64,000 nucleotides of DNA from a virus (IMGVR_UViG_3300045988_136773), one strand, 5' to 3'. Numbered from the stretch's first letter, positions 6,127-27,773 are shown. Numbers and translations are program-made. Notes: generated by a model from the letters alone, not told the origin.

Positions 6127-6140
6127 GGAGGTAATTAAAA

Positions 6141-9832: not shown

Positions 9833-10204
9833 ATGCAGAATGAAAATCAAACAACCAAGGAAATCAATGTATATGATGTTGTTTATACAATCCAGAAGCT
9901 TGGTATTTCATCAAACCTTTTCGGATTTAACTACATTCGATACGCAATCGAACTCATTGCAAAAGATGAATCCTATATGCATTCCATCACAAAACGCCTT
10001 TATCCGGAGATTGCAAGAGCATTTAATTCCACTAGTCAGCGAGTAGAGCGTGCAATTCGTCATGCAATCGATGTGAGTATGTATCGTGTGAATCATGAGT
10101 ATTGGGATATGATATTTGATGGAATTTGTACACTTGATGATGTACGTCCTACAAATTCAGAATTCCTTGCTACACTATACATATACTTAAAGTACAGATG
10201 CTGA
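9833..10204 (+). CDS. Spo0A C-terminal (DNA-binding) domain-only protein
   Basis: SITKRLYPEIARAFNSTSQRVERAIRHAIDV matches the Spo0A_C signature (ITK.LYP.IA....T..RVERAIRHAI). At 123 aa there is no receiver domain. Confidence 0.7.
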   Translation: MQNENQTTKEINVYDVVYTIQKLGISSNLFGFNYIRYAIELIAKDESYMHSITKRLYPEIARAFNSTSQRVERAIRHAIDVSMYRVNHEYWDMIFDGICTLDDVRPTNSEFLATLYIYLKYRC

Positions 10205-14915: not shown

Positions 14916-14944
14916 TTGAAATACGCTTCTATTTATGGTATACT
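14916..14944 (+). promoter_or_regulatory. promoter TTGAAA-17-(TGg)TATACT upstream of the Mrr-like gene
   Basis: -35 at 14916-14921, a 17-nt spacer ending in TGG (extended -10), and -10 at 14939-14944. Confidence 0.55.
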
Positions 14945-14964
14945 ATAATGTAGGAGTGATAATT

Positions 14965-15834
14965 ATGACAAAACGAAAATCCAGTTTAGTGCCAGATTAC
15001 ATTGATTTAATCAATCCGACATTTACTGTAATCAAAAATTTAGGCGGAACTGCAACAAACAATCAAATTCATGATGGTGTTGTTGAGCTTTTACGTTTAT
15101 CAAAAGCTGCTGTATCAGAAAAGCATATAAATAAAAATGAAACCGAACTGATCTACAGATTGAGATGGGTAAGAACCGCAATGAAGAAGTCTGGTGTTCT
15201 AATTAATCAAGAGAGATCAATCTGGACCATACTTCCTGGATATAGGATGCTAGATGCTTTTGATCAGGAACAGCTAGATTTCATCATGAAACAGAAACAA
15301 GTAGTAAGTTCTGTTCCTGTCGCAGTTGAACTTAGCAACGTTACAATTAGTGATGTTATCAACAATGACCCAGATGAAACACCATGGGTAACACAGCTGA
15401 GAGATGTTTTAATGGCTATGAATCCATATAGCTTTGAAACGCTCTGCAAGCTTATTTTAGAAAAATGCGGTATCACTGATGTGTCAACAACAAAGAAATC
15501 AAAAGATGGTGGTATTGACGGATACGGCAGATTGAAACTGAATACAATATTTTCGGTAAATATTGCGTTTCAATGCAAACACTATGGTGGAAAAATTAGT
15601 GCACCTGCTATCCGAAATTTTCGTGGAGCAATGTCACCAAATATTGAAATGGGATTATTCATAACAACCTCTGAATTTACACAAGCGGCAATAGATGAAG
15701 CAAATCGAGTAGATCAGAAAATGATACACATCATGGATGGTGAACAAATTATACAGTATCTACTCGACTGCCAAATTGGATGTACGAAACAGGAAGTCTA
15801 TATCATAGACGAAGACTTCTTCAAAAACTTATGA
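14965..15834 (+). CDS. mrr: Mrr-like type IV restriction endonuclease (Mrr_N winged helix + Mrr catalytic domain)
   Basis: ATG at 14965 follows AGGAG. The catalytic region SKDGGIDGYGRL..IAFQCKHYGGKISAPAIRNFRGA fits the D..(Q/E)xK Mrr core. Confidence 0.75.
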   Translation: MTKRKSSLVPDYIDLINPTFTVIKNLGGTATNNQIHDGVVELLRLSKAAVSEKHINKNETELIYRLRWVRTAMKKSGVLINQERSIWTILPGYRMLDAFDQEQLDFIMKQKQVVSSVPVAVELSNVTISDVINNDPDETPWVTQLRDVLMAMNPYSFETLCKLILEKCGITDVSTTKKSKDGGIDGYGRLKLNTIFSVNIAFQCKHYGGKISAPAIRNFRGAMSPNIEMGLFITTSEFTQAAIDEANRVDQKMIHIMDGEQIIQYLLDCQIGCTKQEVYIIDEDFFKNL

Positions 15835-16185
15835 TTAGTCATCTATAAACTGTCTCCAGGTAGATGGTGCAATGTTGTTTTTGCAAATATGATTGATTCT
15901 TTCCTCAAGCTCATATGCTACATCCACAACATCATCTGCCTCCCAGATGTCGTAATCCACATCTTCGAGAAGATCACAAGCACAATCGATGATCATTACA
16001 TCCTTTGCACGGCTGTTGCGAAATTCTGACTTTGTGTAGATGAAAGAACGCCACATACTATTGATGTTTCTCAGCTGATTGAGAAGCTGATTGATTCTCT
16101 CTACATTTCTGTGAAACTCAGATCTTGTAACCTGATTTTTCACAATTCGCATTCCGTCCGGTCTTCTGTTTTCATTGAATTTCAT
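15835..16185 (-). CDS. hypothetical protein, leftward gene of switch module 1
   Basis: ORF track. RBS is GAAAGGA. It is driven by the minus-strand promoter at 16300-16328. Confidence 0.5.
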   Translation of the reverse strand: MKFNENRRPDGMRIVKNQVTRSEFHRNVERINQLLNQLRNINSMWRSFIYTKSEFRNSRAKDVMIIDCACDLLEDVDYDIWEADDVVDVAYELEERINHICKNNIAPSTWRQFIDD

Positions 16186-16272
16186 AAGATCATATCCTTT
16201 CGATATTTTTAGTATTGAAAACGCTCTGTTTTCAAGAATGGTTCTGTTCAGGGGTTTTGAGTTTTAGCATTT

Positions 16273-16447
16273 ACGCATCTTTGCGTTTGCTATAATTATA
16301 TTATACGCTCGTTTGCGTGTGATGTCAACTGATTTCACACTAAATTATACACAAACTTGCGTAGCCACTTCTATGCAATCTGCACAAATGCGGATATTAA
16401 AAAGATTTTATGCCAATTTACTATTGACAGTGTACGCAAAAGTGCGT
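16273..16447. promoter_or_regulatory. three operators ACGC-N6-GCGT (module 1)
   Basis: The sites are 16273-16286 ACGCATCTTTGCGT, 16305-16318 ACGCTCGTTTGCGT and 16434-16447 ACGCAAAAGTGCGT. The last two sit in promoter spacers. Confidence 0.6.
16300..16328 (-). promoter_or_regulatory. minus-strand promoter TTGACA-17-TATAAT (module 1, leftward)
   Basis: The reverse complement of 16323-16328 is TTGACA and of 16300-16305 is TATAAT. The spacer is 17 nt. Confidence 0.6.
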
Positions 16448-16452
16448 ATAAT
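16424..16452 (+). promoter_or_regulatory. promoter TTGACA-17-TATAAT (module 1, rightward)
   Basis: -35 at 16424-16429 and -10 at 16447-16452, with a palindromic operator in the spacer. Confidence 0.7.
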
Positions 16453-16476
16453 GATATTTGGAAAGAGGTGATTCAC

Positions 16477-16827
16477 TTGTTACAAGACAACTTAAAGAAA
16501 CTAAGGGAAGAACGTGGCTTGACAAAGCGAGAACTGTGTGAAAAAGCAGGCATCTCTGAACGTGCTTACCTTACATATGAATTCGGAGAGCGTGAACCTA
16601 AAATTGGCGTGATTCAAAAGCTCGCTGACTTCTATAATATTTCTACGGACTGCATGCTTGGCAGACAAACAGCAGATGCCCCAACAAGCCCATTACAGCA
16701 ACTCATAGATAAATTTCAACTTACTAAAGATCAAGCCGCTTTACTCGTAGCATACTTAAACATGAATGAATCAGATCGAGAAAATTTGATTAGATGTATT
16801 AAGGTGCTCGCCCGTGGAATACAGTAA
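16477..16827 (+). CDS. XRE-family HTH regulator (module 1)
   Basis: TTG at 16477 follows AAAGAGGTG and lies downstream of the promoter, so the track start at 16357 is unlikely. HTH segment: LTKRELCEKAGISERAYLTYEFGEREP. Confidence 0.7.
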   Translation: MLQDNLKKLREERGLTKRELCEKAGISERAYLTYEFGEREPKIGVIQKLADFYNISTDCMLGRQTADAPTSPLQQLIDKFQLTKDQAALLVAYLNMNESDRENLIRCIKVLARGIQ

Positions 16828-16883
16828 TACTTCGAGTTTCGATAGATTTCATAATAATAACTTCCTTTCATGGTTTTAATTTA

Positions 16884-17056
16884 AGGACGTATCGTCCTTT
16901 GCAATATGATTATAGCACATATCGTCCTATGATGTCAACCGATTTCTAACAAAATCATACACAAAATGTCCTAATGCAATTTATGCAAATCTATGAATCG
17001 TCCTATTTCATGCTTGAATTTTAAAAATGCTATTGACACATAGGACAAAACGTGCT
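16884..17056. promoter_or_regulatory. three operators AGGAC-N5-GTCCT (module 2)
   Basis: The sites are 16884-16898 AGGACGTATCGTCCT, 16914-16928 AGCACATATCGTCCT and 17042-17056 AGGACAAAACGTGCT. Their positions parallel those in module 1. Confidence 0.55.
16909..16938 (-). promoter_or_regulatory. minus-strand promoter TTGACA-18-TATAAT (module 2, leftward)
   Basis: The reverse complement of 16933-16938 is TTGACA and of 16909-16914 is TATAAT. It points into the 3' end of the module 1 XRE gene. Confidence 0.5.
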
Positions 17057-17061
17057 ATCCT
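17033..17061 (+). promoter_or_regulatory. promoter TTGACA-17-TATCCT (module 2, rightward)
   Basis: -35 at 17033-17038 and a weaker -10 at 17056-17061. The backbone aligns with the module 1 promoter. Confidence 0.5.
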
Positions 17062-17079
17062 TTATAAGGTGGTGATTAG

Positions 17080-17352
17080 ATGAATACAGATAATTTGAAA
17101 GCTATCCGGAAAAAGTCCGGAAAGACTCAAAAAGAGGTTGCAGAAGGAATTGGTATTGGTCAAGGCACATACAAAAATTATGAAACTGGTGCAAGAGAAC
17201 CTAATAATGCTACCCTAGTCGCAATCGCAAATTATTTTGATGTAACAACAGACTACTTACTAGGACGAGAACAAACAGCATCTACTGAATCATTAAGGTT
17301 AAGCAAAATCAAGGAACATATCGATGCTATCAATGATATTCTGAATGACTGA
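17080..17352 (+). CDS. XRE-family HTH regulator (module 2)
   Basis: RBS is AAGGTGGTG. HTH segment: KTQKEVAEGIGIGQGTYKNYETGAREP. Confidence 0.75.
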   Translation: MNTDNLKAIRKKSGKTQKEVAEGIGIGQGTYKNYETGAREPNNATLVAIANYFDVTTDYLLGREQTASTESLRLSKIKEHIDAINDILND

Positions 17353-17365
17353 GGAGTTGATTCTT

Positions 17366-17818
17366 GTGAAAATTTACATTAGAGGCTTTGCAGAAATGCA
17401 AAGAGAAGTCGAAAGAACACTATCTGCACACACCGGAGAAGTTATAGAGCATATGTTAAAATGCTATCTAATGCCAGATCATCCAGCTGTGAATCACTGG
17501 AAATCTGAAATTGCAAATCAAATTTGTAGTGTTAATAAGTTGAAAAATACTAAAAAGTATCCTACTGCAAATAAGATTTATGCGTGGACATACGAACAAA
17601 ATTGTGCAATACTAACAAATTATACTAAATTTTCTAATTTCGTCCGTGAAATTTGCAATGACTATAGTATTGAGACAATTGAACCAGTAAAGGACATTAT
17701 GGATGACTTCAACAAAATTTGTAAAGAGTATTTTAGCTGGCTTGCTAATATGCTAAGCACATCTGGAAAAGCCGCTAGCACTGATATATACGATAAATTA
17801 GATGAATTATTTCGATAG
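17366..17818 (+). CDS. hypothetical helical protein (possibly DUF29-like), paralogue of 17842..18312
   Basis: GTG at 17366 follows GAGGAG. It shares layout with the neighbour (W.SEIA.., YAWTY / YKWTY, YFSWLA / YFHWLT, DKLDELF / EKLDELL). Confidence 0.5.
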   Translation: MKIYIRGFAEMQREVERTLSAHTGEVIEHMLKCYLMPDHPAVNHWKSEIANQICSVNKLKNTKKYPTANKIYAWTYEQNCAILTNYTKFSNFVREICNDYSIETIEPVKDIMDDFNKICKEYFSWLANMLSTSGKAASTDIYDKLDELFR

Positions 17819-17841
17819 TACGAATTAGAGGTGAAACAGAA

Positions 17842-18312
17842 ATGAGGATATTTGTAACAGAACGTGCAGATTTGCTACGTGATCTGGAAAGAGAATTATC
17901 GCCTCGTACAGATAAGATAATTGATACAATTATACAGCTATACTTGTTTCCGGAGAATGCTGACGCAAAGAAATGGAAATTTGAAATTGCTCGTAATCTA
18001 AATTCTGTATCTGTGATTAAAAAGAAGTTGCCTACAGCAAAACAACTTTATAAATGGACATATTATAAAAAGTGGGATCTTGTAACAGACATAGCATGGA
18101 TGAGTGTTACCATGCGTGACATAAAATATAAATGTCATGCAAAGGTTACTGAACCAGTTGAAACTGTCTGTAAAGACGTAGATGATATTTGTTGTAAATA
18201 TTTTCACTGGCTTACTCATGAGCTAAGTACCTACGGGTGTGTTGCAAACGCTCAAATTGATGAAAAATTGGATGAGCTTCTTAGAGATAAAGGACGGTTT
18301 AGTAATATGTGA
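17842..18312 (+). CDS. hypothetical helical protein, paralogue of 17366..17818
   Basis: RBS is AGAGGTGA. Alignable by eye to the preceding gene. Confidence 0.5.
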   Translation: MRIFVTERADLLRDLERELSPRTDKIIDTIIQLYLFPENADAKKWKFEIARNLNSVSVIKKKLPTAKQLYKWTYYKKWDLVTDIAWMSVTMRDIKYKCHAKVTEPVETVCKDVDDICCKYFHWLTHELSTYGCVANAQIDEKLDELLRDKGRFSNM

Positions 18313-18317
18313 GATTT

Positions 18318-18842
18318 TTACAGGGTGTTGACTATCATGAAAATCCGTAAAAGAAAACGATATATCAAAAGCAGTAGTAACGTAAACACATTGGAGTTTG
18401 AGATTGTTGTACTTGCAGATGTACTCGTAGACGTTTCTACAGATAATTCGTCATCTACTTTGTGATTGATGGAACTTACAATTATAAGCGATACAAGAAT
18501 ACTGATTACAACTATGACAGCTGTTATGGTAATTCCGAGAATCAGTTTTTTGTTATGTATATGATTTGAATGACATTCTGGTGAATCTAGCTTTGCACTT
18601 GATACTACATCTGCGTTTGTATGTTCACTCTCTAGGTTTTGTTGCGGTTCTTGCACTTTTGTTCCACAAACAGGACAAATACCTGTTTGCATATCAATAG
18701 GGTTCCCACAATTCCAGCACAGCCTGCTGTCATTCGATTTTACGTCTGTTGAATGTACTGCATCTTGATCTATACAAAATCCACATAGATAACAATCTTT
18801 TGCATTATCATCAAGTTCTGTACCACAATTCGGGCATAGCAT
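18318..18842 (-). CDS. double zinc-ribbon protein with C-terminal TM helix
   Basis: Four CxxC pairs are present (CPNCG..CYLCG and CWNCG..CPVCG), plus the TM segment LILGITITAVIVVISILVSLIIV. RBS is GAGGTGA. Confidence 0.6.
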   Translation of the reverse strand: MLCPNCGTELDDNAKDCYLCGFCIDQDAVHSTDVKSNDSRLCWNCGNPIDMQTGICPVCGTKVQEPQQNLESEHTNADVVSSAKLDSPECHSNHIHNKKLILGITITAVIVVISILVSLIIVSSINHKVDDELSVETSTSTSASTTISNSNVFTLLLLLIYRFLLRIFMIVNTL

Positions 18843-18857
18843 AGTAATTCACCTCTG

Positions 18858-20108
18858 TCAGTTTTTCGTTTTTGGTAGCTTTACATTATGATATATTATA
18901 AGTCCTACTATTGCAGTTAAACAGAATGATGCTAATATTAAGAAAAATCCAATTCCGAGTATAGATTTCAATTTCACACCATCTTCAATGATGAATGTTT
19001 GAAATAGATGTTTTAAATCTATAAACGTGACAACTTCTCCGATGATGCCTATTATAGGAGCTCCTACAGCAATGTACTTTTTGTATTTACCTAATGGTTT
19101 TATATAATTCATGATGATGATTAGTATTGGAACTAAAAATATGAGTATGCTGAAAATCGACTTGTTATCCCCTAATTTAAGTTCTTTTATTCCAACTAAA
19201 GTACTAAATACACTTGCAGTAATTCTATTTCCAGTATCTTCTGCGGACTTAGCATAAAAACTTGCAAACGGAAAAAATGTAAATACTAGAGTTATTATTG
19301 AACATATCGTCATAATGTGATTTCTGACAAATTTGTTTTTTATCGGGATATTTTCAAAATTTTCATCATGTGGTTGTGCGGCAGCAGCAGATTTTAATGT
19401 ATTAACTGCTTTTGATGCTATGTGACTTATGGATTGTGACGCTTCAGATCCTGATACTACATACTGATTTGAATTTGATTCCGCAGGCTTAGATACTGGA
19501 TTTGATGCAACTTGTATATGATTAGATTTATTTTGCATCTTTGCAATTTCCGTATCACGATATAACACATCAACGCTATTTGGGCAGCTGTCGATTAACA
19601 ATTGCATAAATTCAAGGTTTCCAATGAAATATACTTCGTAAATATCTGTACCAATGTAATCTGTAAGCTCTTGAAAAATTCCCTTCCACTGCAAATCCCT
19701 GATTTGAATTGAGTTTATCCATTCGTCAATTGATCGATTTTGAATTCTAGTCGTATCGAATGCATGTCCATTTATAGTAATTTTAGTTACAAATGGATTT
19801 TCGCTATACAGAATTGTTACTGTGTTATTTGAACTTATAAGATTTACAGGTGAATCTTTCAGTGCATATTTCACCATTTCAAATGATGCGGCATCACTTT
19901 CAAACAACAGTGTATAATCAGGTTTTCCGGTAAATGACCTTAATTCTTCATATAGGCCTTTCCATTTTACTCCCTTTGAACTCAATGGAAATAGCCATTG
20001 TTCTATCGGGAAATCTCTGATACATTTTGTATCAAGTGTTTTATCATCATAAGATATTTTCAGTGTATCTTTTTCTCTATCGTACACTATCTTTACAATA
20101 GGTTTCAT
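18858..20108 (-). CDS. membrane protein: two tandem copies of a ~85-aa soluble domain plus about 4 TM helices
   Basis: Internal repeat (..EQWLFPLSSKGVKWKGLYEELRSFTG.. versus ..DEWINSIQIRDLQWKGIFQELTDYIG..) with four hydrophobic helices at the C-terminus. RBS is GAGGTGA. Confidence 0.6.
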   Translation of the reverse strand: MKPIVKIVYDREKDTLKISYDDKTLDTKCIRDFPIEQWLFPLSSKGVKWKGLYEELRSFTGKPDYTLLFESDAASFEMVKYALKDSPVNLISSNNTVTILYSENPFVTKITINGHAFDTTRIQNRSIDEWINSIQIRDLQWKGIFQELTDYIGTDIYEVYFIGNLEFMQLLIDSCPNSVDVLYRDTEIAKMQNKSNHIQVASNPVSKPAESNSNQYVVSGSEASQSISHIASKAVNTLKSAAAAQPHDENFENIPIKNKFVRNHIMTICSIITLVFTFFPFASFYAKSAEDTGNRITASVFSTLVGIKELKLGDNKSIFSILIFLVPILIIIMNYIKPLGKYKKYIAVGAPIIGIIGEVVTFIDLKHLFQTFIIEDGVKLKSILGIGFFLILASFCLTAIVGLIIYHNVKLPKTKN

Positions 20109-20121
20109 AGTTTTGTCACCT

Positions 20122-21117
20122 CTATACAGTAAATGTCTTTGCGATTTTATTCTGAATATCCATAGAAAACATAGGAATCTGTATATTCAACAGTTCGTCT
20201 AAATCAAGTTTTGCAATAGTTACTCCAGATTTGCAATTGTTCAGTTCATACTGTCCACATTCGCTTTCTAAAAATGCCTTTACATAATATGGATTTACCT
20301 TGTCTGCGTCTAGTTCTAAAACATACATTCTTCCAACAGCGATTACATTTGCATCTTCAAAGTCGGCAATCTGCGTTTTTGATGTATCTCCGAATTTGGG
20401 AATAATCAAACTCTTATTCGGAATTTTATGATTTAGATAAGAATCTGATTCTTTTAGATATTTGAGTGCAGATGTTTTAGCGTTCGAATTGAGATCATTA
20501 GTGCTAAACGCATACATACTTGTTTCAGATTTAGATATTGCATTTTTCAAGTCTGTTGGATTCATCTCAATTCCACAAATCACTTTCTTTGTAATGCTTT
20601 TGAGTGTCACAGGATTTTCAAAGTTCAAGTTGTGATCGAAATAGCGTACAGGATATAACTGATAGTTTAATGATATGATTTCATCTTTGGATACACAGCG
20701 GCTTATATCTGTATTCGATTTGCATGCTGTTGCAATCTTAGAAATATCGTCATCAGACAGAATCTTATGATTTTCGTTTGTATGATAAGCATCTGTAGCA
20801 TCAACCATATACACGCTACCATCAGATTTACCAAGTACGAGCATAGCAATTTGTGCATTTGTTGTATGCAACAAGCCAGGTTTAAGCGATACGACAGCCT
20901 TTAGTCGATTGTTTTCAATCAGATCTTTTCGGACTGTCTGATATGCTTTTCGATCATCAAATACTCCACCGTTCAAAATGAATACAACTGAATTAGTATC
21001 AGCTGTGTTTACTAAATCCGAAATTGTCATGACATCAGTTTGCGTTGATGGCTTTTTAGAAATTGATTCTTCCAATTCCTTCAAAGAATCCGTTAATTTC
21101 AACTTGATTTGTTTCAT
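20122..21117 (-). CDS. N6-adenine methylase C-terminal remnant fused to an HsdS-type target recognition domain (no motif I or IV seen)
   Basis: Three segments match by eye: FILNGGVFDDRKAYQTVRKDLIENNRLKAVVSLKPGLLHTTNAQIAMLVLGK, then LSDDDISKI..VSKDEIISLNYQLYPVRYF, then a TRD ending LDLDELLNIQIPMFSMDIQNKIAKTF. Confidence 0.55.
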   Translation of the reverse strand: MKQIKLKLTDSLKELEESISKKPSTQTDVMTISDLVNTADTNSVVFILNGGVFDDRKAYQTVRKDLIENNRLKAVVSLKPGLLHTTNAQIAMLVLGKSDGSVYMVDATDAYHTNENHKILSDDDISKIATACKSNTDISRCVSKDEIISLNYQLYPVRYFDHNLNFENPVTLKSITKKVICGIEMNPTDLKNAISKSETSMYAFSTNDLNSNAKTSALKYLKESDSYLNHKIPNKSLIIPKFGDTSKTQIADFEDANVIAVGRMYVLELDADKVNPYYVKAFLESECGQYELNNCKSGVTIAKLDLDELLNIQIPMFSMDIQNKIAKTFTV

Positions 21118-21158
21118 TTTACGCCCCCCAAATTGGAATAAATAATTTTTACAAATAC

Positions 21159-21167
21159 ATTATATCA
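21159..21167 (-). promoter_or_regulatory. extended -10 element TGaTATAAT on the minus strand upstream of 21117
   Basis: The reverse complement of 21159-21167 is TGATATAAT. It lies in the 143-nt gap between the ImmA-like gene and the methylase-remnant gene. Confidence 0.4.
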
Positions 21168-21260
21168 CATTTCACGACATTGTTCTATTTGCAAATTGTA
21201 CAAATTTTAAAGTGTGTACTGTGTGCAATTTGACGAAAATCATATTGATATACGCATCTG

Positions 21261-21773
21261 TCATTTGTTTATTTTACCAAAGATATAGTTTTGAAACTGC
21301 GTATACAAACGAATATCATCATGCTGGACACCGTTCCGCTTATAATTTTGTATACACACTATCTGCTTCTTTGCTGCGGATAATGGAATACTGCATAGTT
21401 TTACAAGCTGATACACATCATCTACGTTGATAGCCGACAAGACTGGAATCGGGGCTAATAGATTTAATCCAAATCGGTATGCTTCTTCATCAGATAGTTG
21501 GATTCCAGTGAATACACGACCTATTTCGCATGCTATTAAAAGCCTTTGATTTTCGATTGAAGTAGAATCATCTATTAATATACACATCTGTCCGTCAATT
21601 TTAATCAACCCACCAATGATATTTATACGATCTTGTCGTTTTGTTATATCACTCAGTTTTATAATCTTCACTTGAAACACTTTGCAAATTTTTCGAAGTT
21701 TAACAGGCAATGCTGTAATATTGCATTGAATTAAGCATGCTGTACTTTGTTCTATCATATTATAAGATTTCAT
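21261..21773 (-). CDS. ImmA/IrrE (COG2856)-like protein with degenerate metal site
   Basis: QRLLIACEIGRVF..EEAYRFGLNLLAPIPVL aligns by eye to the rFtlaHElgH..E..An.FA..lLmP pattern, with HExxH replaced by CEIGR. It is adjacent to an XRE gene. Confidence 0.5.
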   Translation of the reverse strand: MKSYNMIEQSTACLIQCNITALPVKLRKICKVFQVKIIKLSDITKRQDRINIIGGLIKIDGQMCILIDDSTSIENQRLLIACEIGRVFTGIQLSDEEAYRFGLNLLAPIPVLSAINVDDVYQLVKLCSIPLSAAKKQIVCIQNYKRNGVQHDDIRLYTQFQNYIFGKINK

Positions 21774-21809
21774 AAGACCACCTCATGAGTATTATGCTGT
21801 AATTCCGCA

Positions 21810-22268
21810 TCAATATTCATCTGATGAATCTTTTGCATTTTTCAAAGCATTTATGTCAATCCCAGACTGCTCAGATTCGCCTGTATTGGCTTTTGTTGCG
21901 GTGTGACTATAGTTTTCCTCTTGGTTTCGTAGCATCGATTCTAGGGAATCCTGACGCTTGTTCTCATACATCTGCTCTAGCCTGCCAATTATTTTTATCT
22001 GATCTCGATCTGAGAATTTTCGATATATGTGCAACACTTCAATTTCATTCTCAGATAGATTATTTTCAGATTCTTTTCCGGTCAGAATATATTCTGGAGA
22101 TGTACCTAGAAACTCTGCGATTGCAACAATTTTATCCGAAGATGGATTTGTTCCGTGTGTTTTCCAGTCAGATATAGCGGCAGTTGAGATTCCTGTGTAC
22201 GCAGCTAGTTCTTTCTGCATCTTCCCTTTCGATTTTAGCAGCTGAAAAATTCTTTGTGAAATTGTCAT
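21810..22268 (-). CDS. XRE-family HTH regulator (152 aa, cI-like size)
   Basis: HTH segment: KMQKELAAYTGISTAAISDWKTHGTNPSSDKIVAIAEFLGTSPEYILTG. RBS is GAGAGGAG. Confidence 0.75.
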   Translation of the reverse strand: MTISQRIFQLLKSKGKMQKELAAYTGISTAAISDWKTHGTNPSSDKIVAIAEFLGTSPEYILTGKESENNLSENEIEVLHIYRKFSDRDQIKIIGRLEQMYENKRQDSLESMLRNQEENYSHTATKANTGESEQSGIDINALKNAKDSSDEY

Positions 22269-22328
22269 AATTCTGTCTCCTCTCTTTTAGATATATTCAC
22301 AAATAATTCAGTAATCCGTATTTATGTA

Positions 22329-22357
22329 TTGACAAATACGTATATACGAATTACAAT
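22329..22357 (+). promoter_or_regulatory. promoter TTGACA-17-TACAAT with palindrome CGTATATACG in the spacer
   Basis: -35 at 22329-22334, -10 at 22352-22357, palindrome at 22339-22348. It is divergent from the XRE gene. Confidence 0.55.
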
Positions 22358-22506
22358 ATGAATATAGCAAGTGCTATCAGTAAATATGGCTGATACATAT
22401 AGGGGATTTTTACAGTCGAGTTTTGCAGTATTTCTTATAGTATAATTTTTTCTTGATGATTTGTCAATAGTATCATTCTGTGAAACCGATTTCATATAGT
22501 AAAAAT

Positions 22507-22548
22507 ATAGCCTGTACTATTCAGAATCAGCTGACTAGTACAGGCTAT
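22507..22548. terminator. 12-bp stem hairpin terminator
   Basis: Stem atagcctgtact / agtacaggctat. T-rich tracts follow on both strands. It lies just downstream of the minus-strand gene ending at 22566. Confidence 0.65.
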
Positions 22549-22565
22549 GTTTAGTTTATGATGAT

Positions 22566-23180
22566 TTAGCTTCGGAAAGCAGATTTCACTCGATTGACAA
22601 TATAGCTTAACGCTTGACGATATGTCTGGAATTTGTGTCCGCTCACAATGATTTCAAGACTATCGTATTGTAGGTCATCTGGGTTCTTTTCATTCAAATC
22701 ACGGTAATTTTCAAGTTCCCTAGCATAGTATTCATTTCTAGCATCAAATCTATCCCAATTTTTATTATTGCCCTTATGCTTTGTCAGACGATGATCTGAA
22801 ATTCTAAGATTTAGAATGATTTTCACATTCAGTGCCTCATACTCATCCTCTTTGCAGAGTACAAAATAACATGACTTACTATTATTTCGGTTACTGAAAT
22901 TCGAACCTTCTAATGTTTCAAAGCCAATAGCTTTTAGATTAATTGCAACAGAATTCATGAATGCGTAGTAATGCTCTTCTGCGGTTTCTTCTATTACATC
23001 GTCTAATTCAGAATCTGTCAAATTTGGATTGAATGCTGCCGTAATGCCATCGTTGAATGAGTATATGAGAACAGTTGTGGCAGCTGAATTGACTACCACA
23101 CAGGTAACTACTACAGAAACAACCAGTATGACTACTACAACCGCAGAAACTACTACAACAAATCTCATTGACTTAAACAA
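22566..23180 (-). CDS. hypothetical protein (true start uncertain; N-terminal poly-Val segment overlaps the next gene in antisense)
   Basis: ORF track. The C-terminal ~130 aa look like genuine coding sequence and are followed by a terminator. No clear RBS precedes any candidate start. Confidence 0.45.
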   Translation of the reverse strand: MFKSMRFVVVVSAVVVVILVVSVVVTCVVVNSAATTVLIYSFNDGITAAFNPNLTDSELDDVIEETAEEHYYAFMNSVAINLKAIGFETLEGSNFSNRNNSKSCYFVLCKEDEYEALNVKIILNLRISDHRLTKHKGNNKNWDRFDARNEYYARELENYRDLNEKNPDDLQYDSLEIIVSGHKFQTYRQALSYIVNRVKSAFRS

Positions 23181-23865
23181 TTATATTGGTTTTTGGCATA
23201 GCTCTGATTTTGGAAACGCTAGAGAATTAACAATATCAAACGTATCTGACAAAACACTAGTGTTTACTCTATGGTACTATCGTTTAAGCTCAATTGATGA
23301 TGTTTCAGCATTGATAGAAGGTAATATTGCTAAGTTTGATACTGGAGATGTGAGTGGATATTTAAAATTTGATGAATCTGCTATAACTGTTGTAATTGAA
23401 AGATCATCATTGGCTTACATGAATGCAGAACAAGTGAAATTTGATGGTAAACATAATCAATCATGGGAAAATGGATCGCCTGATGATACAACTACTGAGG
23501 CTGACACATTTATGCCGTATGAAATCCAAATCAAAAATCCAAAATTAAACATATATGATAAACCAAGCTATAGTGGCAATATCGTAGGAACAATTACAGA
23601 TCAACAATACTACACCATTGTCGAAGAGTACATGGAACCAGGTCATACTTCAAATTTAGATGTTTGGGGAAAATTGAAATCTGGAATGGGCTGGATAAAC
23701 CTATATGATGCTGAACTAGAGGAAGATTCTAGTTACATGGATGAATCTGCAAATGTTTATTGCCCAAGCTGCGGTTATGGATGGTTTACAACTGGCGTTG
23801 GCGATGATGGGTTCACTTGTCCTAGTTGTGGATTTAAATGGAATCCATATGTATATGGATTTTGA
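23029..23865 (+). CDS. SH3b-like domain protein with Thr-rich linker and C-terminal zinc ribbon (start uncertain)
   Basis: NIYDKPSYSGNIVGTITDQQYYTIVEE..WGKLKSGMGWINLYD resembles a bacterial SH3 domain. CPSCG..CPSCG lies at the C-terminus. A terminator follows. Confidence 0.55.
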   Translation: MNAAVMPSLNEYMRTVVAAELTTTQVTTTETTSMTTTTAETTTTNLIDLNNYIGFWHSSDFGNARELTISNVSDKTLVFTLWYYRLSSIDDVSALIEGNIAKFDTGDVSGYLKFDESAITVVIERSSLAYMNAEQVKFDGKHNQSWENGSPDDTTTEADTFMPYEIQIKNPKLNIYDKPSYSGNIVGTITDQQYYTIVEEYMEPGHTSNLDVWGKLKSGMGWINLYDAELEEDSSYMDESANVYCPSCGYGWFTTGVGDDGFTCPSCGFKWNPYVYGF

Positions 23866-23884
23866 TTAATTTAATACTTGAAGT

Positions 23885-23928
23885 AAAAGCCACATATATC
23901 ATGCATTTGTATGATATATGTGGCTTTT
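23885..23928. terminator. bidirectional terminator between convergent genes
   Basis: An 18-bp perfect stem (aaaagccacatatatcat / atgatatatgtggctttt) with an 8-nt loop, flanked by A and T runs. Confidence 0.8.
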
Positions 23929-23929
23929 C

Positions 23930-24307
23930 TTATTTCAGTGCAGGCGTTAATGAGAAATCACGTCTATATAATTCGTAATCCCCAGGTTGCAGTGCATCTG
24001 GATCAACTCTGGCTTTGTAATAGTCACAACAGTCGATAGCAACCTTGCTGTTCATAGCGTAAAAATTGTAGAACTGGGCATCTGTGTAAATGTGCTGTAT
24101 ACCAGCCCATGTCACGACTGATTTGTATCTCAATTCCCGTCGTAGAGGTGGACCATCAAGATAGCATTCACGGTATGTGACTATGCCGTAATCTTGGTAA
24201 TGATCTTCTTTGTAAGTGTATTCAGATGCAGGTGTGCTAACACAGCCACCACATAGCAATATAGTGCTGGTTGTGAGCGTATAAACAAAATACCTGAAGA
24301 ATTTCAT
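23930..24307 (-). CDS. putative secreted protein or lipoprotein
   Basis: ATG at 24307 gives MKFFRYFVYTLTTSTILLCGGCVSTP, a signal-like sequence with Cys residues. RBS is AGGAT. Confidence 0.5.
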   Translation of the reverse strand: MKFFRYFVYTLTTSTILLCGGCVSTPASEYTYKEDHYQDYGIVTYRECYLDGPPLRRELRYKSVVTWAGIQHIYTDAQFYNFYAMNSKVAIDCCDYYKARVDPDALQPGDYELYRRDFSLTPALK

Positions 24308-24444
24308 AATATCGCATCCTAACAAGACTATCCTCATCTAGAGGGTGGTCTTTTTTTTGTTTTAATATTAACTCCTGCCATGTTTTAGTGCCTACTAATA
24401 GACTGGAAATCTATTAGCATGAAAAATAGCTTTTTGCAATCATT

Positions 24445-24480
24445 ATAGTAAGTAGGGGTAATATAGTAAGTAGGGGTAAT
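24445..24480. repeat. perfect 18-bp tandem duplication ATAGTAAGTAGGGGTAAT x2
   Basis: Read directly at 24445-24462 and 24463-24480, in an intergenic gap. Confidence 0.9.
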
Positions 24481-24498
24481 TATCAATGATTCAACAAG

Positions 24499-25275
24499 TC
24501 ATGCATCAATGTCTACCCCAAGTTCTTGTAAGAGTCGTTTTTCACCAAATGGAGTAATCAGTGTCTGCGTGTACAGCAAATAGCCGGTTTCTGAAAGCCG
24601 ACGCTTTACGACAAACCACCCTGCATTTGCATACTTCTCGGTAGGGTAATTTCTGTGATCTCTGTCACTGTACAGAAATCCGTTTTCTCTCAACCATGCA
24701 AACATGCCCTTACGCCCAAATGTTACGCCGTAGTAATCCCTCAGCTTTCTGGTAAATGTGTAAACGTCAATTCCAATTGGTTCAAACGATTTAGAATTAT
24801 CAGATTTAGCATCATACGTTTTGGCATCTGACTTGAACGTCTTGCACGTTTCCAATTGTCTGGTCATGCTCTGAATCGTATCTGATTGTGATTTGATGAT
24901 GTCGTACAAGTATTTTACATCTGGTGCTGTAGATTCATTTAGGATACGACTTCGAATGTCTGGAAGTACTTCTGACGTAATCCAACGCTTGAATAGAAGT
25001 CTGCTGTACAAGTCACTGAAGTTGACAAGACTGTAGAAGCCACCCTCATTGATGACTGGCACGGGTTGAATCTCGCCACCAATATTACAATTCACCATGC
25101 ACTTATCCCCACAATCTACATGCTTGACCATGGCTTCTCTTGGGTTGCTGTATCCGAGTGCAGTTGCAATATCTTTTGTGAAGAAGTATGGTGTGCTATT
25201 GATGATCAATGTGCGAACTTCTCCGAAATGCTCGTTAGAGTAATGTGTGACTGCATATGTAGTTTCTTTCATCAT
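24499..25275 (-). CDS. Bro-N domain antirepressor-like protein
   Basis: The start MMKETTY at 25275 follows GAAAGGAAA. Bro-N domain: HFGEVRTLIINSTPYFFTKDIATALGYSNPREAMVKHVD. Confidence 0.7.
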   Translation of the reverse strand: MMKETTYAVTHYSNEHFGEVRTLIINSTPYFFTKDIATALGYSNPREAMVKHVDCGDKCMVNCNIGGEIQPVPVINEGGFYSLVNFSDLYSRLLFKRWITSEVLPDIRSRILNESTAPDVKYLYDIIKSQSDTIQSMTRQLETCKTFKSDAKTYDAKSDNSKSFEPIGIDVYTFTRKLRDYYGVTFGRKGMFAWLRENGFLYSDRDHRNYPTEKYANAGWFVVKRRLSETGYLLYTQTLITPFGEKRLLQELGVDIDA

Positions 25276-25545
25276 AATTTTCCTTTCAGATTTTTGACTA
25301 TCAACTTTTGTTTCGCAGTGTGCGTTTTTGCTTCTAAAACATATAACGAGGGACACCGCAAGAAGTGAAAATATGGTGATGGATTTTCAAGTGTTCAGTA
25401 CAGTTTGCATGATGATTCAAGCATTACGAACACGGGGCATGGAATCTGTTTATGACTTAAACATGATTTAAAATCCATATTATAGTCACAGCGAATATGA
25501 GAATATGCTACTCAAACTATGCAAATTAGACGTTTAGCTAGTCAT

Positions 25546-25600
25546 AAATTTGCAATTTAGCGAGTTTTTCAAGATTTTTGAAAAGTCAAATTGCAAATTT
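25546..25600. repeat. 13-bp perfect inverted repeat AAATTTGCAATTT / AAATTGCAAATTT enclosing a second palindrome TTTTCAA..TTGAAAA
   Basis: Arms at 25546-25558 and 25588-25600, with the nested inverted repeat at about 25566-25585. Confidence 0.85.
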
Positions 25601-25659
25601 TCACACCGTTAAATTGAAAATATCGTGCAGAGATTCAGGTATATACTATATTATATAAT

Positions 25660-25702
25660 AATAAAATATAATAAAATATAATAAAACCTCTCTAATAAAA
25701 CC
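25660..25702. repeat. 10-bp phased A-tract tandem repeats (AATAAAATAT x2, then AATAAAACC x2)
   Basis: Read directly at 25660-25669, 25670-25679, 25680-25688 and 25694-25702. Confidence 0.85.
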
Positions 25703-25855
25703 TAATGAAATTTAAGGGAGATTAGAATTGGGGGCAATTTCCTTAAACAATGAACAAAATAGATTTTTTATGAAAGCCGATTTTGAGTTCATCGTTAGGG
25801 TTTAATGTCAGGGTGATGCCCTACAAATCCACAAAACAGATATGGAGGAATATCT

Positions 25856-26653
25856 ATGAGACGAATTGAAAGTGCAGTTGCAAGTGCAGATCGAGTACTA
25901 GCTTATGCCAAAGAGCAAGCAAATAAAAAATCGACAACCATGTATGACAACACAATGGATCAAACTGCACACATCATCAAAGCCTGTGATGAAGCAATTA
26001 AAATCCTAACCAGACGGATGACTTCTGCTATACCGAGAAACTATGTACCTGATACACAGGATAAACCGTCCTTTTCTAGAATCAATCACTTGTATGCAAA
26101 AACACTCGACGCATTTCAGTATTACCCGATACCAATTCCAGCAATTTCTCAGTGTGCTTATTATCTTTCCAGATGGTTTCATATCCGGATTTTGACTAAG
26201 TATACAGGTAAAGATTTAAAACTCCACTGCAAGTATTATCGGAATTTAATCCCATCATTAGTAATTTCTTATGGATATTATCTAGAGCATGGGCAACTTA
26301 ATGCGTTTCATGATGCATTTCAGAAATTTGAATCTGATTTGAAATCTGGGGATTGCAGATATGCACTTCCGTTTAATGCATTTCAGATTGCCAAGTCCAA
26401 CGCAGGACTATACGGTAATTTTGCTTCTCAGCTGATTTTTGACTACCTGTGGGACTATGGTTTGGATCGCCTTTCATTTTGTGAACCTAAGTATGATTCA
26501 AACTTTCGGGCGTGCGGATTGCGAAAAAATATCATAACTGAGAAACTTATGGATTCAAATATCCCTGAACTAGATGCATACGATGGTGATTATGAGTCAA
26601 ATCTTTCGTATCTTAGTCAGTTTTCAGTTGTTGGAGGAGAGTTGAGTGAGTAA
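25856..26653 (+). CDS. hypothetical protein, first gene of the replication block
   Basis: ORF track. RBS is GGAGG. Confidence 0.55.
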   Translation: MRRIESAVASADRVLAYAKEQANKKSTTMYDNTMDQTAHIIKACDEAIKILTRRMTSAIPRNYVPDTQDKPSFSRINHLYAKTLDAFQYYPIPIPAISQCAYYLSRWFHIRILTKYTGKDLKLHCKYYRNLIPSLVISYGYYLEHGQLNAFHDAFQKFESDLKSGDCRYALPFNAFQIAKSNAGLYGNFASQLIFDYLWDYGLDRLSFCEPKYDSNFRACGLRKNIITEKLMDSNIPELDAYDGDYESNLSYLSQFSVVGGELSE

Positions 26654-27773
26654 GATTAAGTTTACACAGATTCCAGATAAGTTCAAGTATCCGGCAAAGT
26701 GTAAAGGTGCTTTATCTACAAAGCATTCTGAGATTGTGACCTATGTTGTTGACCACTTTCGGAATTCTATAAAATACAAAAACCAAGTTATAACTGCTCT
26801 GAACACAGCGAGTTATTATGCAGTTTCTGATGACACCTGGCCAGAATCATGGAATTTGAATGATCCCTTTCAGTCTATGCCAGTTGTTCCAGACGACTCC
26901 ATATTCGACGTGTTGGGTAGCTTGTATTTAAATCTTGCAGATATCGAATGGGATGTTGTAGAATCCAATTCTTCAATTGATTTCCAGGAAACAATAGAAT
27001 CGACATCATCAATGGTGACTTGTAAATCTAGCACCATGCGTCAAGCAACACCGACACCGAAAGAAGATCTGTATATTCGACCACCAATGATTCCACAATT
27101 CGACGTAACAAAACCGTGGTTGCAGGAAGTTGTAAATGGTCAGGAGTATGTGATTTATACATCCCTTCCAGTTATTCCAGAAAATCAAAGTCAGATCTCA
27201 GTGACTACAGATATCTCGAAAATGAAATCATCCGATTTGCTTAATCTGTTTCCAAACCGCTGTATACATACTAGAGCCGCTGTTATGTATGAGCCATATG
27301 GTGATCTTGCTTTTGATGAGAACCTTGGGGTTATATTTCCAATCGAAGGATTTACACATGATGAAGTGAGAGATAACATTATCCGATATCCCCACCTGTA
27401 CAAGCTAATGCGTGTTGTTGATGGAAAATTTGTAAGCTTCTACCAAAATATAGAACTAAACGGAGAGCTGCATGACGTTTTGCAGGTGTGGAATGAGCTT
27501 CCAGACAGCAAGTACATCCCAAAGTCCACGGAATACATCAAGGAATATGTTGTACGGCGTTTCCTACTTGAACGTGACAAATTACATACCCAAACTAAAT
27601 GGGCGTTATACGGGACGCTAGAGCCATTTCTGACGCTTTTCATGGAATCCGAAAAATATGCCACTTATGGCTATGCAGATTCTTTAGCTCTTGCATCTCA
27701 ATGTGTAAAATCTCGTGTTTCATATAAACAATCTAGAAATCCAATTTTGAGGGCGGTGAACTACGCTAAATGA
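26646..27773 (+). CDS. hypothetical protein
   Basis: ORF track. GTG start after GGAGGAG, with translational coupling to both neighbours. Confidence 0.55.
   Translation: MSKIKFTQIPDKFKYPAKCKGALSTKHSEIVTYVVDHFRNSIKYKNQVITALNTASYYAVSDDTWPESWNLNDPFQSMPVVPDDSIFDVLGSLYLNLADIEWDVVESNSSIDFQETIESTSSMVTCKSSTMRQATPTPKEDLYIRPPMIPQFDVTKPWLQEVVNGQEYVIYTSLPVIPENQSQISVTTDISKMKSSDLLNLFPNRCIHTRAAVMYEPYGDLAFDENLGVIFPIEGFTHDEVRDNIIRYPHLYKLMRVVDGKFVSFYQNIELNGELHDVLQVWNELPDSKYIPKSTEYIKEYVVRRFLLERDKLHTQTKWALYGTLEPFLTLFMESEKYATYGYADSLALASQCVKSRVSYKQSRNPILRAVNYAK

Follow-up and report, generated by a model that had tools for sequence, protein, structure and literature searches.

Do the five minus-strand genes at positions 18318-22268 of the viral sequence IMGVR_UViG_3300045988_136773 make up one defence system, or are they modules of separate origin that have come to lie side by side? 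The whole stretch analysed, referred to below as the window, comprises 64,000 nucleotides (nt), and the cluster encodes an XRE-type repressor, an ImmA-like protein, a methylase remnant that carries a target recognition domain (TRD), a membrane protein with four transmembrane (TM) helices and a zinc-ribbon membrane protein. A first-pass annotation had read the five genes, or the last three as a core, as a sensor-effector system. Our analysis suggests instead, with a probability of roughly 0.6 for the explanation as a whole, that the locus is a mosaic of three separately inherited modules and not a coherent new defence system. The system reading fails because the three core genes do not co-occur across diverged genomes; in addition, the fifth gene is truncated in the window, so the proposed system is not intact here.

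Organization of the gene cluster

The features on which the argument rests are the following (aa, amino acids; ORF, open reading frame):

21810-22268, minus strand: XRE152, a CI/XRE-type helix-turn-helix (HTH) repressor of 152 aa
21261-21773, minus strand: 170-aa ORF, an ImmA/IrrE (Peptidase_M78) homologue without the zinc-binding histidines
21118-21260, minus strand: promoter region of the 331 gene, with an extended -10 element and a palindrome at 21180-21203
20122-21117, minus strand: 331-aa ORF, an N6-adenine-methylase remnant (the lobe that follows motif IV) joined to a single HsdS-type TRD
18858-20108, minus strand: 416-aa ORF, with tandem alpha/beta cytosolic domains of about 90 aa, a linker and a carboxy-terminal 4-TM region
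18318-18842, minus strand: 174-aa ORF, the 5' fragment (codons 1-147) of a 409-aa double-zinc-ribbon gene with an out-of-frame tail
23029-23865, plus strand: detached 3' part of the 409-aa gene, encoding a Thr-rich linker, an extracellular domain, an SH3b-like domain and a CPSCG...CPSCG tail
22566-23180, minus strand: gene for a 191-aa protein without its first 24 codons, beheaded by an inversion
18405-23073, no strand: inverted segment of 4.67 kb, which four diverged relatives have in the opposite orientation

The gene structure given in the first-pass annotation holds. Five ORFs are co-oriented on the minus strand, each is preceded by a strong, purine-rich ribosome-binding site (GAGGAG, GAGGTGG, GGGGGG, GAGGTG and GAGGTG, in order from XRE152 to the 174-aa ORF), and the last three are separated by only 13 nt (331-416) and 15 nt (416-174). 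The gap between XRE152 and the 170 gene is 36 nt and that between the 170 and 331 genes 143 nt. The internal extended -10 promoter that had been noted before the last three genes was also found: TGaTATAAT lies at 21167-21159 on the minus strand, inside the 143-nt gap, and the ATG of the 331-aa ORF follows 44 nt downstream. This promoter is conserved in related loci: L001, L004, L007, L069 and L002 keep a TGnTATAAT element at a spacing of 42-44 nt to the ATG, together with about 90 nt of surrounding sequence; the last of these retains it despite only 52% protein identity and a different upstream gene. A further promoter, TTGACA-17-TATACT, lies ahead of XRE152 at 22467-22439 (11/12 in the promoter scan). 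Because the genes from 331 onward have their own conserved promoter, the cluster is, judging from these elements, two transcription units (XRE-170 and 331 onward) and not one operon. All cluster genes are under purifying selection and are therefore functional; the ratio of nonsynonymous to synonymous substitution rates (dN/dS) is about 0.15-0.30 across the cluster, with values of 0.16-0.56 for XRE152 and 0.16-0.23 for the pair formed by the 416 and zinc-ribbon genes.

Distribution of the modules

The trio of 331, 416 and double-zinc-ribbon (DZR) genes is limited to one close phage group (L001, L004-L009 and L025), within which the proteins are 80-100% identical. The neighbourhood check of the three-gene core that the first-pass annotation had proposed was run, and it separates the modules: the 331 gene is found with other partners, and the membrane pair is found without it in at least eight lineages. 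The 416-family neighbourhoods examined comprise L014-L022 and 24 metagenome loci. The pair of 416 and zinc-ribbon genes occurs at about 24 further loci on Firmicutes mobile elements, which represent at least eight diverged lineages, and at none of these loci does a 331 relative lie within -3/+4 kb of it. Since the pair occurs across lineages without 331, the conserved unit is a two-gene membrane cassette, to which the 331 gene is an independent neighbour.

These data bear directly on the integrated system, in which the TRD protein would detect invading DNA, the two membrane proteins would disrupt the membrane in an abortive infection, and the XRE and ImmA-like proteins would regulate both. Such a system is consistent with the co-orientation, the 13-15-nt gaps and the shared promoter of the last three genes, with the maintenance of the trio in several phage variants, with the Panacea-type toxin-antitoxin-like pair found among other cargo at the same slot, and with a layout resembling cI-rexA-rexB of phage lambda, in which RexB is a 4-TM protein. 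It is also consistent with the lack of a match to any known system. The earlier statement that the cluster corresponds to no named defence system is borne out by PADLOC-DB v2, which gave only generic Type I M/S and HTH (weak capH) models and nothing significant for the 170-, 416-, 174- or 409-aa proteins; a match to the MAD5 equivalog of MADS scores 36 bits against a cut-off of 400. However, the three genes are together in a single phage group, elsewhere the TRD gene has other partners and the membrane pair occurs without it, and lineages with a truncated fifth gene or with all cargo deleted persist in several samples. In addition, the SH3b-like, YARHG and Cys-tail extracellular domains (see below) point outward and not to a cytosolic trigger. 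We consider a DNA-sensing abortive infection system very unlikely. More generally, the locus illustrates that a phage cargo hot spot can mimic an operon-encoded system when a single genome is read.

The carrier phage and its cargo slot

Three assemblies carry the locus on contigs of 144.7, 146.0 and 146.1 kb, and these contigs encode a T4-type portal protein, PolA, DnaB, a primase, RecA and ThyX. Because contigs of this size hold both portal and replication genes, the element is a phage of about 146 kb. It is a phage of Ruminococcus callidus and its relatives, and the locus is a hypervariable accessory region of its genome; a megablast search of 16000-24000 against GenBank phages gave no match. 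The cluster lies between a region of Mrr, multi-HTH and antirepressor genes and the replication genes, in agreement with the earlier placement of the cluster in a phage accessory region shared with an Mrr nuclease, the gene for which is at 14935-15834.

The slot 3' of the XRE-170 pair serves as a hot spot for cargo (L069, 10656-15230; L070/L071, 10656-12167, where the insertion sequence is of the DDE_Tnp_1 type). The gene orders in related phages, with genes named by product length where no other name is given and arrows for direction, are as follows:

L069 cargo slot: 336 > 227-aa lipoprotein > 558-aa zinc-ribbon protein > SocA_Panacea > 214
L002 cargo slot: 332 > 226-aa lipoprotein
L032, a distant relative phage: Mrr > < 117 > 335 > 169 > AntA, with no XRE, ImmA-like, 416 or DZR gene
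L070/L071 cargo slot: insertion sequence element, with the 331 gene truncated at about codon 127 and both membrane genes removed

The alternative cargo lipoprotein carries a lipobox, and the cargo is envelope-exposed either way, whether it is the membrane pair or the lipoprotein. It is also dispensable, since the form with the truncated zinc-ribbon gene persists in at least five samples and the deletion form in L070/L071. In the mosaic explanation, the promoter-bearing 331 gene would be the first of a short operon, and the cargo behind it would change from one related phage to another.

A methylase remnant fused to a single TRD

The description of the 331-aa protein as a methylase remnant with an HsdS-type TRD is well supported by profile searches, in which the protein covers only positions 157-305 of the 311 in the N6_Mtase profile and then matches the Methylase_S TRD (3.8e-7). 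It also matches the PADLOC Specificity_I model (3e-13). At the structural level, residues 41-165 align with the HsdM structures 3lkd and 7bst, and residues 228-322 with the TRD of Esub1 (E=6e-4). Esub1, from Streptococcus pyogenes (PDB 8VSQ/8VSR), is an orphan single-TRD protein resembling half an HsdS, whose role is unknown and which its authors suggest to be a repressor-like DNA binder (PMC11754733). With the profile match starting at position 157, the S-adenosylmethionine-binding motif I (xDPxxGxGxF) is absent from the 331-aa protein, and the catalytic motif IV (N/D-P-P-F/Y/W; NYPF/W in the nearest relatives) is missing both from it and from all members of the truncated family. The protein is thus predicted to be unable to methylate. 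Of the features of an HsdS subunit, it has a TRD and lacks the coiled-coil conserved region(s) and the second TRD. The 64-kb window was searched and holds no N-terminal methylase half and no hsdR or hsdM partner, so a split methylase with its other half elsewhere in the window was rejected.

An exhaustive phmmer search recovered 1708 relatives. Most are about 565-590 aa long and combine a complete methylase domain with one TRD and a helix at the C terminus. The closest of the full-length relatives (about 570 aa; P0143, P0146 and P0131, for instance) are 27-38% identical to the 331-aa protein over about 290 residues, with the homology falling in the methylase lobe (residues ~40-165) and the TRD (residues ~180-330). 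A smaller set has the short architecture from its first residues onward: P0130 (53% identity), P0139, P0142, P0149 and P0284 (28-37%), and the 335-aa protein of L032. The 643-aa protein of L033 (Alistipes) is a tandem double of the short unit. In alignment, this short family retains the 'TPDSLxxL' helix that precedes motif I and then jumps to the lobe that follows motif IV; what is lost is the N-terminal domain, motifs I-IV and, at the C terminus, the dimerising coiled-coil helix (about 30 residues in relatives). The dN/dS of the 331 gene is 0.15-0.30 in the remnant half and in the TRD half alike, and on this, together with the recurrence of the truncated architecture, a pseudogene or decaying remnant was rejected. 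The core-deleted family looks like a restriction-modification module that has been converted to reading DNA only. To our knowledge, few uses of HsdS-type TRDs outside restriction-modification have been described.

The presence of the TRD makes the 331-aa protein a likely sequence-specific DNA-binding protein, in which the C-lobe and one TRD would bind DNA without any enzymatic activity. It could act as a regulator of its own operon, as a site occluder or as a decoy. A more specific proposal is that the protein serves in counter-defence, as a dead mimic of Type I M/S subunits that occludes phage sites or poisons host Type I complexes, with the membrane cassette being unrelated. The retention of the HsdM C-lobe and the TRD after loss of the chemistry would suit such a mimic, as would the strong promoter of the gene and the purifying selection on it. 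The genomic context is also suggestive: full-length relatives neighbour hsdM and hsdS genes, the window encodes Mrr, and in L032 Mrr directly adjoins the 331 relative. On the other hand, the 331-aa protein is without the coiled-coil region that HsdS-type proteins use for partner assembly, PHROGs and Pfam show no similarity to known anti-restriction proteins, and for Esub1 the binding to HsdM in vitro was not conclusive (PMC11754733). A counter-defence role is in our view unlikely, and we favour the DNA reader at the head of a variable operon.

The association with Mrr deserves separate mention. In L032, an Mrr-type nuclease gene and a convergent 116-aa gene adjoin the 331-family gene (4192-6795), and the three L032 products are 44%, 31% and 34% identical to the equivalents at window positions 14935-16185 and to the 331-aa protein. 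Mrr and the methylase-remnant protein may have an ancestral link. An obligate pair was rejected: the two genes adjoin only in L032, lie 4-5 kb apart in the window, and Mrr is absent upstream in L002.

The two-gene membrane cassette

The 416-aa protein is 100% identical to RUMCAL_00399 of R. callidus ATCC 27760. Its description as a duplicated-domain 4-TM protein is correct, as residues 5-87 and 96-178 are internal duplicates (E=1e-11) and are followed by four hydrophobic helices. An AlphaFold2 model (pLDDT 78) shows a pair of alpha/beta domains, followed by a linker that is disordered and by four TM helices. The family is large, with at least 155 homologue clusters, and in none of them does a Pfam domain cover the shared region. 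PDB and Pfam profile scans of 34 members were negative, apart from two weak Amastin matches; tblastn of the 416-aa protein against phages gave no match, and neither did a comparison of the model with BFVD. In a Foldseek search of the PDB, only the TM domain was matched, by claudin/TARP proteins with TM-scores of 0.4-0.49 on the target.

At every 416-family locus with enough sequence, the next gene downstream encodes a single-TM protein of the type MxCPNCG...CxxCG. At about 20 of the 24 further loci, an ORF with two to four CxxC motifs in its first 80 aa and one TM helix begins at -4 to +75 nt past the 416-family stop codon, and the remaining loci are interrupted by contig ends or are without a clear ORF. 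The extracellular domains of the DZR relatives are SH3b-like or YARHG. Upstream, a divergent XRE gene is usually present, and the immediately preceding gene is variable (222 aa, 277 aa, Mor or none). Often there is also a small serine recombinase gene in the vicinity; in L014 (9578-10165) and L020 (10670-11263), a recombinase of about 195 aa lies just downstream of the cassette and is 77% identical between these diverged elements. The 416 and zinc-ribbon genes are thus a conserved pair, without a family assignment, on phages and integrative elements of gut Firmicutes. In the mosaic explanation they would form a portable two-gene envelope cassette, in which a tetraspan protein is combined with a zinc-ribbon single-pass protein that has a variable extracellular domain.

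The same architecture could be read not as an exclusion factor but as a transmembrane signalling device of the anti-sigma or RsgI type, in which the outer domain senses the cell wall and the cytosolic domains relay the signal to regulators of the element. The arrangement of a zinc ribbon, a single TM helix and a variable extracellular domain would be expected of such a device, as would the constant divergent XRE neighbour, which often comes with a cREC_REC protein and a small recombinase of the serine type; at one locus (L015), a sigma-70 gene is nearby. The partners vary across lineages, however, and no anti-sigma domain homology was detected in Pfam or NCBIfam. We regard signalling as improbable, and we retain the envelope cassette as the reading of this pair.

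An inversion severs the zinc-ribbon gene

The first-pass annotation identified the fifth gene as encoding a double zinc-ribbon membrane protein. The domain was assigned correctly, as the 174-aa ORF matches DZR/Zn_Ribbon_1 and has one TM helix; the ORF itself, however, is only a fragment of a 409-aa gene. It consists of 147 codons of that gene followed by about 27 out-of-frame codons, and it is 99% identical to residues 1-147 of the 409-aa protein of L004. The missing part is found on the other strand, where the ORF at 23029-23865 is 99.6% identical to residues 146-409 of the same protein and has a weak SH3_3 match. Full-length zinc-ribbon proteins of 406-409 aa are encoded in L001, L004, L007, L008 and L025. 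The tail of the 409-aa protein, VYCPSCGYGWFTTGVGD(D/E)GF(T/V)CPSCG, is shared with the alternative cargo lipoproteins L002_226 and L069_227.

Two arrangements of the locus account for this. In arrangement A (L004, which is ATCC 27760, and L007, L008, L001 and L025), the gene order is HTH90 > 157 > 156 > 191 > XRE152 > 170 > 331 > 416 > 409 > < 135 < Bro/ANT. In arrangement B (the window, L005, L006 and L009-L011), the stretch from codon 24 of the 191-aa gene to about codon 146 of the 409-aa gene has the reverse orientation. By blastn against L004, 14001-18406 is direct, 18405-23073 is inverted at 99.06% identity and 23070-27000 is direct, which places the breakpoints at 18405/18406 and 23070-23073; the identity of the two flanks is 90.6% and 92.8%. 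The other gene cut by the inversion is that of the 191-aa protein, and the beheaded ORF (22566-23180, minus strand) is 98.8% identical to residues 25-191 of L004_191, with a 51% homologue in L002. The junctions show 1-3 nt of microhomology, a 2-nt duplication and a loss of 1-2 nt.

A programmed inversion of the Hin/Gin/Cin type was also considered but rejected. The ends of the 18405-23073 segment carry no inverted repeats, the junctions are imprecise, each lineage has a single orientation, and there is no invertase in the window: the search for a serine recombinase or resolvase homologue was negative there and was confined to the window, not covering the rest of the ~146-kb genome. The inverted-form contigs, which come from at least five samples (L005, L006, L009, L010 and L011), are all 100% identical to the window, and arrangement A is confined to four diverged lineages. 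No contig of IMG/VR or of the JGI metagenomes contains the junction of the inverted form. The presence of arrangement A in four diverged lineages and the lack of inverted repeats and of a recombinase in the window argue for a single illegitimate inversion. The inversion flipped the whole unit and severed the zinc-ribbon gene after codon 147.

The inversion has a further consequence for the beheaded 191-aa gene. The Thr-rich linker TTTQVTTTETTSMTTTTAETTTT (23029-23180) reads as Val-rich and hydrophobic on the opposite strand, and the beheaded gene thereby gains a possible TM-like N-terminus (Kyte-Doolittle peak 3.47), which is probably a by-product of the inversion.

The regulatory pair

The assignment of the first gene as XRE is upheld by matches of XRE152 to Pfam Phage_CI_repr (1.3e-11) and HTH_3 (6.4e-11). 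In NCBIfam it is DicA/RstR-like with a score below the cut-off, and in PADLOC it gives a weak capH match. The 170-aa protein has no direct match in Pfam, NCBIfam or PADLOC and only three close homologues, and its AlphaFold2 model, built with these three (pLDDT 50), is too poor for use. A match to RNF4 in a PDB profile search is spurious; the link to ImmA is made through tblastn intermediates. In GenBank phages, tblastn identified two 189-aa proteins that are 27-29% identical to the 170-aa protein over 89-96% of its length (E ~1e-7). Both carry HELGH and match Peptidase_M78 (2e-13 and 6.7e-13), and each is preceded by an XRE gene (L023, L024), just as XRE152 precedes the 170 gene by 36 nt. The HExxH site that reads HELGH in these homologues is CEIGR in the window protein and SELGR in the other allele (P0136/P0137), and 14 residues after it are deleted. 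The 'dead ImmA-like' label was thus apt: by alignment, the 170-aa protein is a true ImmA/IrrE homologue in which neither of the zinc-binding histidines is retained. Since both metal-binding histidines are lost, cleavage of a repressor by this protein is very unlikely. In the mosaic explanation, a CI/XRE repressor and its ImmA/IrrE paralogue would form the first module, with the paralogue most likely acting by binding and not by cleavage.

The ImmA-like gene exists as two alleles that are 55-57% identical (window 21261-21773 versus L001 7347-7859 and L007 8337-8858). In the same phages, the neighbouring XRE genes share about 90% identity or more (dN ~0.05-0.06). This suggests, from sequence comparison, that the ImmA-like partner gene alone was replaced by the other allele.

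A possible role in the cell envelope

What might the cassette do? In this lineage, the extracellular domain of the zinc-ribbon protein is SH3b-like with a Cys-rich tail, and the most likely role of the cassette is to alter or protect the envelope of the cell that carries the phage, by superinfection exclusion or by host or surface conversion. Its action would not be a DNA-triggered abortive infection. A bolder version holds that the tetraspan and zinc-ribbon proteins are an undescribed envelope exclusion or defence cassette that is widespread on mobile elements of gut Firmicutes, placed here under a dead methylase-TRD protein that supplies sequence-specific control or sensing. We consider this version quite unlikely. 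If true, operons that are headed by a TRD protein and carry exchangeable envelope effectors (either the membrane pair or the Cys-tail lipoprotein) would constitute a new modular class of phage-borne exclusion.

Several points weigh against the mosaic with its envelope function. Within the phage group, the 331 gene is always directly upstream of envelope or zinc-ribbon cargo, so a functional link between them is possible. DNA binding by a TRD on half a methylase fold is assumed, and the half-fold may be unstable alone. For the 416-aa protein and the outer portion of the 409-aa protein, nothing in PADLOC, Pfam, NCBIfam, PHROGs, PDB or BFVD points to a function, and no homology ties any of the three downstream proteins to exclusion. 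Finally, no integrase was seen in the annotated phage regions.

The locus nevertheless exposes two uncharacterised, selectively maintained families on mobile elements of abundant human-gut Firmicutes, either of which could have a new function in exclusion or regulation. Ready-made genetic controls exist in the natural variants (full operon, truncated fifth gene, form deleted by the insertion sequence and lipoprotein cargo).

Other features of the window and phage

Several other features were observed around the cluster. A 90-aa HTH gene followed by paralogous 157- and 156-aa genes (37% identity; one weak DUF29 match) occupies 17080-18312, and similar units of an HTH gene and a gene of about 150 aa recur in the related phages L001 and L069. 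Near-perfect hairpins are present at gene ends at 22503-22552 and 23885-23928 (arms of 22 and 21 bp); the latter is scored as a terminator, and the former lies just 3' of the 191-aa gene, before the XRE promoter. At 24444-24479, between the Bro-N/ANT antirepressor gene and the 135-aa gene, there is a perfect tandem duplication of the 18-nt unit TATAGTAAGTAGGGGTAA. A protein with a Spo0A_C domain is encoded at 9833-10204. Outside the window, the phage contig L010 (2490-3173) yields a Tad3-family match, and the phage also encodes ThyX and C5 DNA methylases, one of which an intein interrupts.

Comparison with known systems

A search of the literature for methylase/TRD proteins that are inactive, for exclusion proteins with zinc ribbons and for phages of R. 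callidus returned nothing matching. The locus is compared here module by module. The 331-aa protein shares the post-motif-IV lobe and the HsdS-type TRD with HsdM and HsdS of Type I restriction-modification systems, but it lacks their N-terminal helical domain, motifs I-IV, the coiled-coil helix and an hsdR/hsdM partner. Esub1 resembles it in having a single HsdS-type TRD that is encoded away from restriction genes; Esub1, however, has a dimerisation helix and no methylase remnant, and the 331-aa protein has the reverse.

The regulatory pair has the XRE-then-M78 gene order of ImmR/ImmA of ICEBs1, DdrO/IrrE and CapH/CapP. Repressor cleavage is the defining activity of such pairs of XRE proteins and COG2856 metalloproteases. 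Unlike the proteases of these systems, the 170-aa protein has neither the HExxH histidines nor the 14 residues that follow them.

The 416-aa model resembles tetraspans of the claudin/TARP/PMP22 type in its 4-TM topology and in the short beta-strands of its first outer loop. Its duplicated cytosolic domain of 190 aa has no counterpart in claudin/TARP proteins, and as the scores are marginal no functional inference is drawn.

At the level of the whole locus, the closest parallels are exclusion genes linked to prophage repressors, such as rexAB beside cI in lambda, the lipoprotein Ltp of phage TP-J34 and SieA of P22 (for SieA, see PMC10883804). The window genes differ from rexAB, Ltp and SieA in having their own cargo promoter and in showing no sequence or fold similarity to them, so the likeness is one of position only, and exclusion is a putative role here. 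As in rexAB, Ltp and SieA, the cargo in the window encodes envelope or membrane proteins beside a phage repressor and is dispensable for growth, and the alternative cargo in related phages is a lipoprotein.

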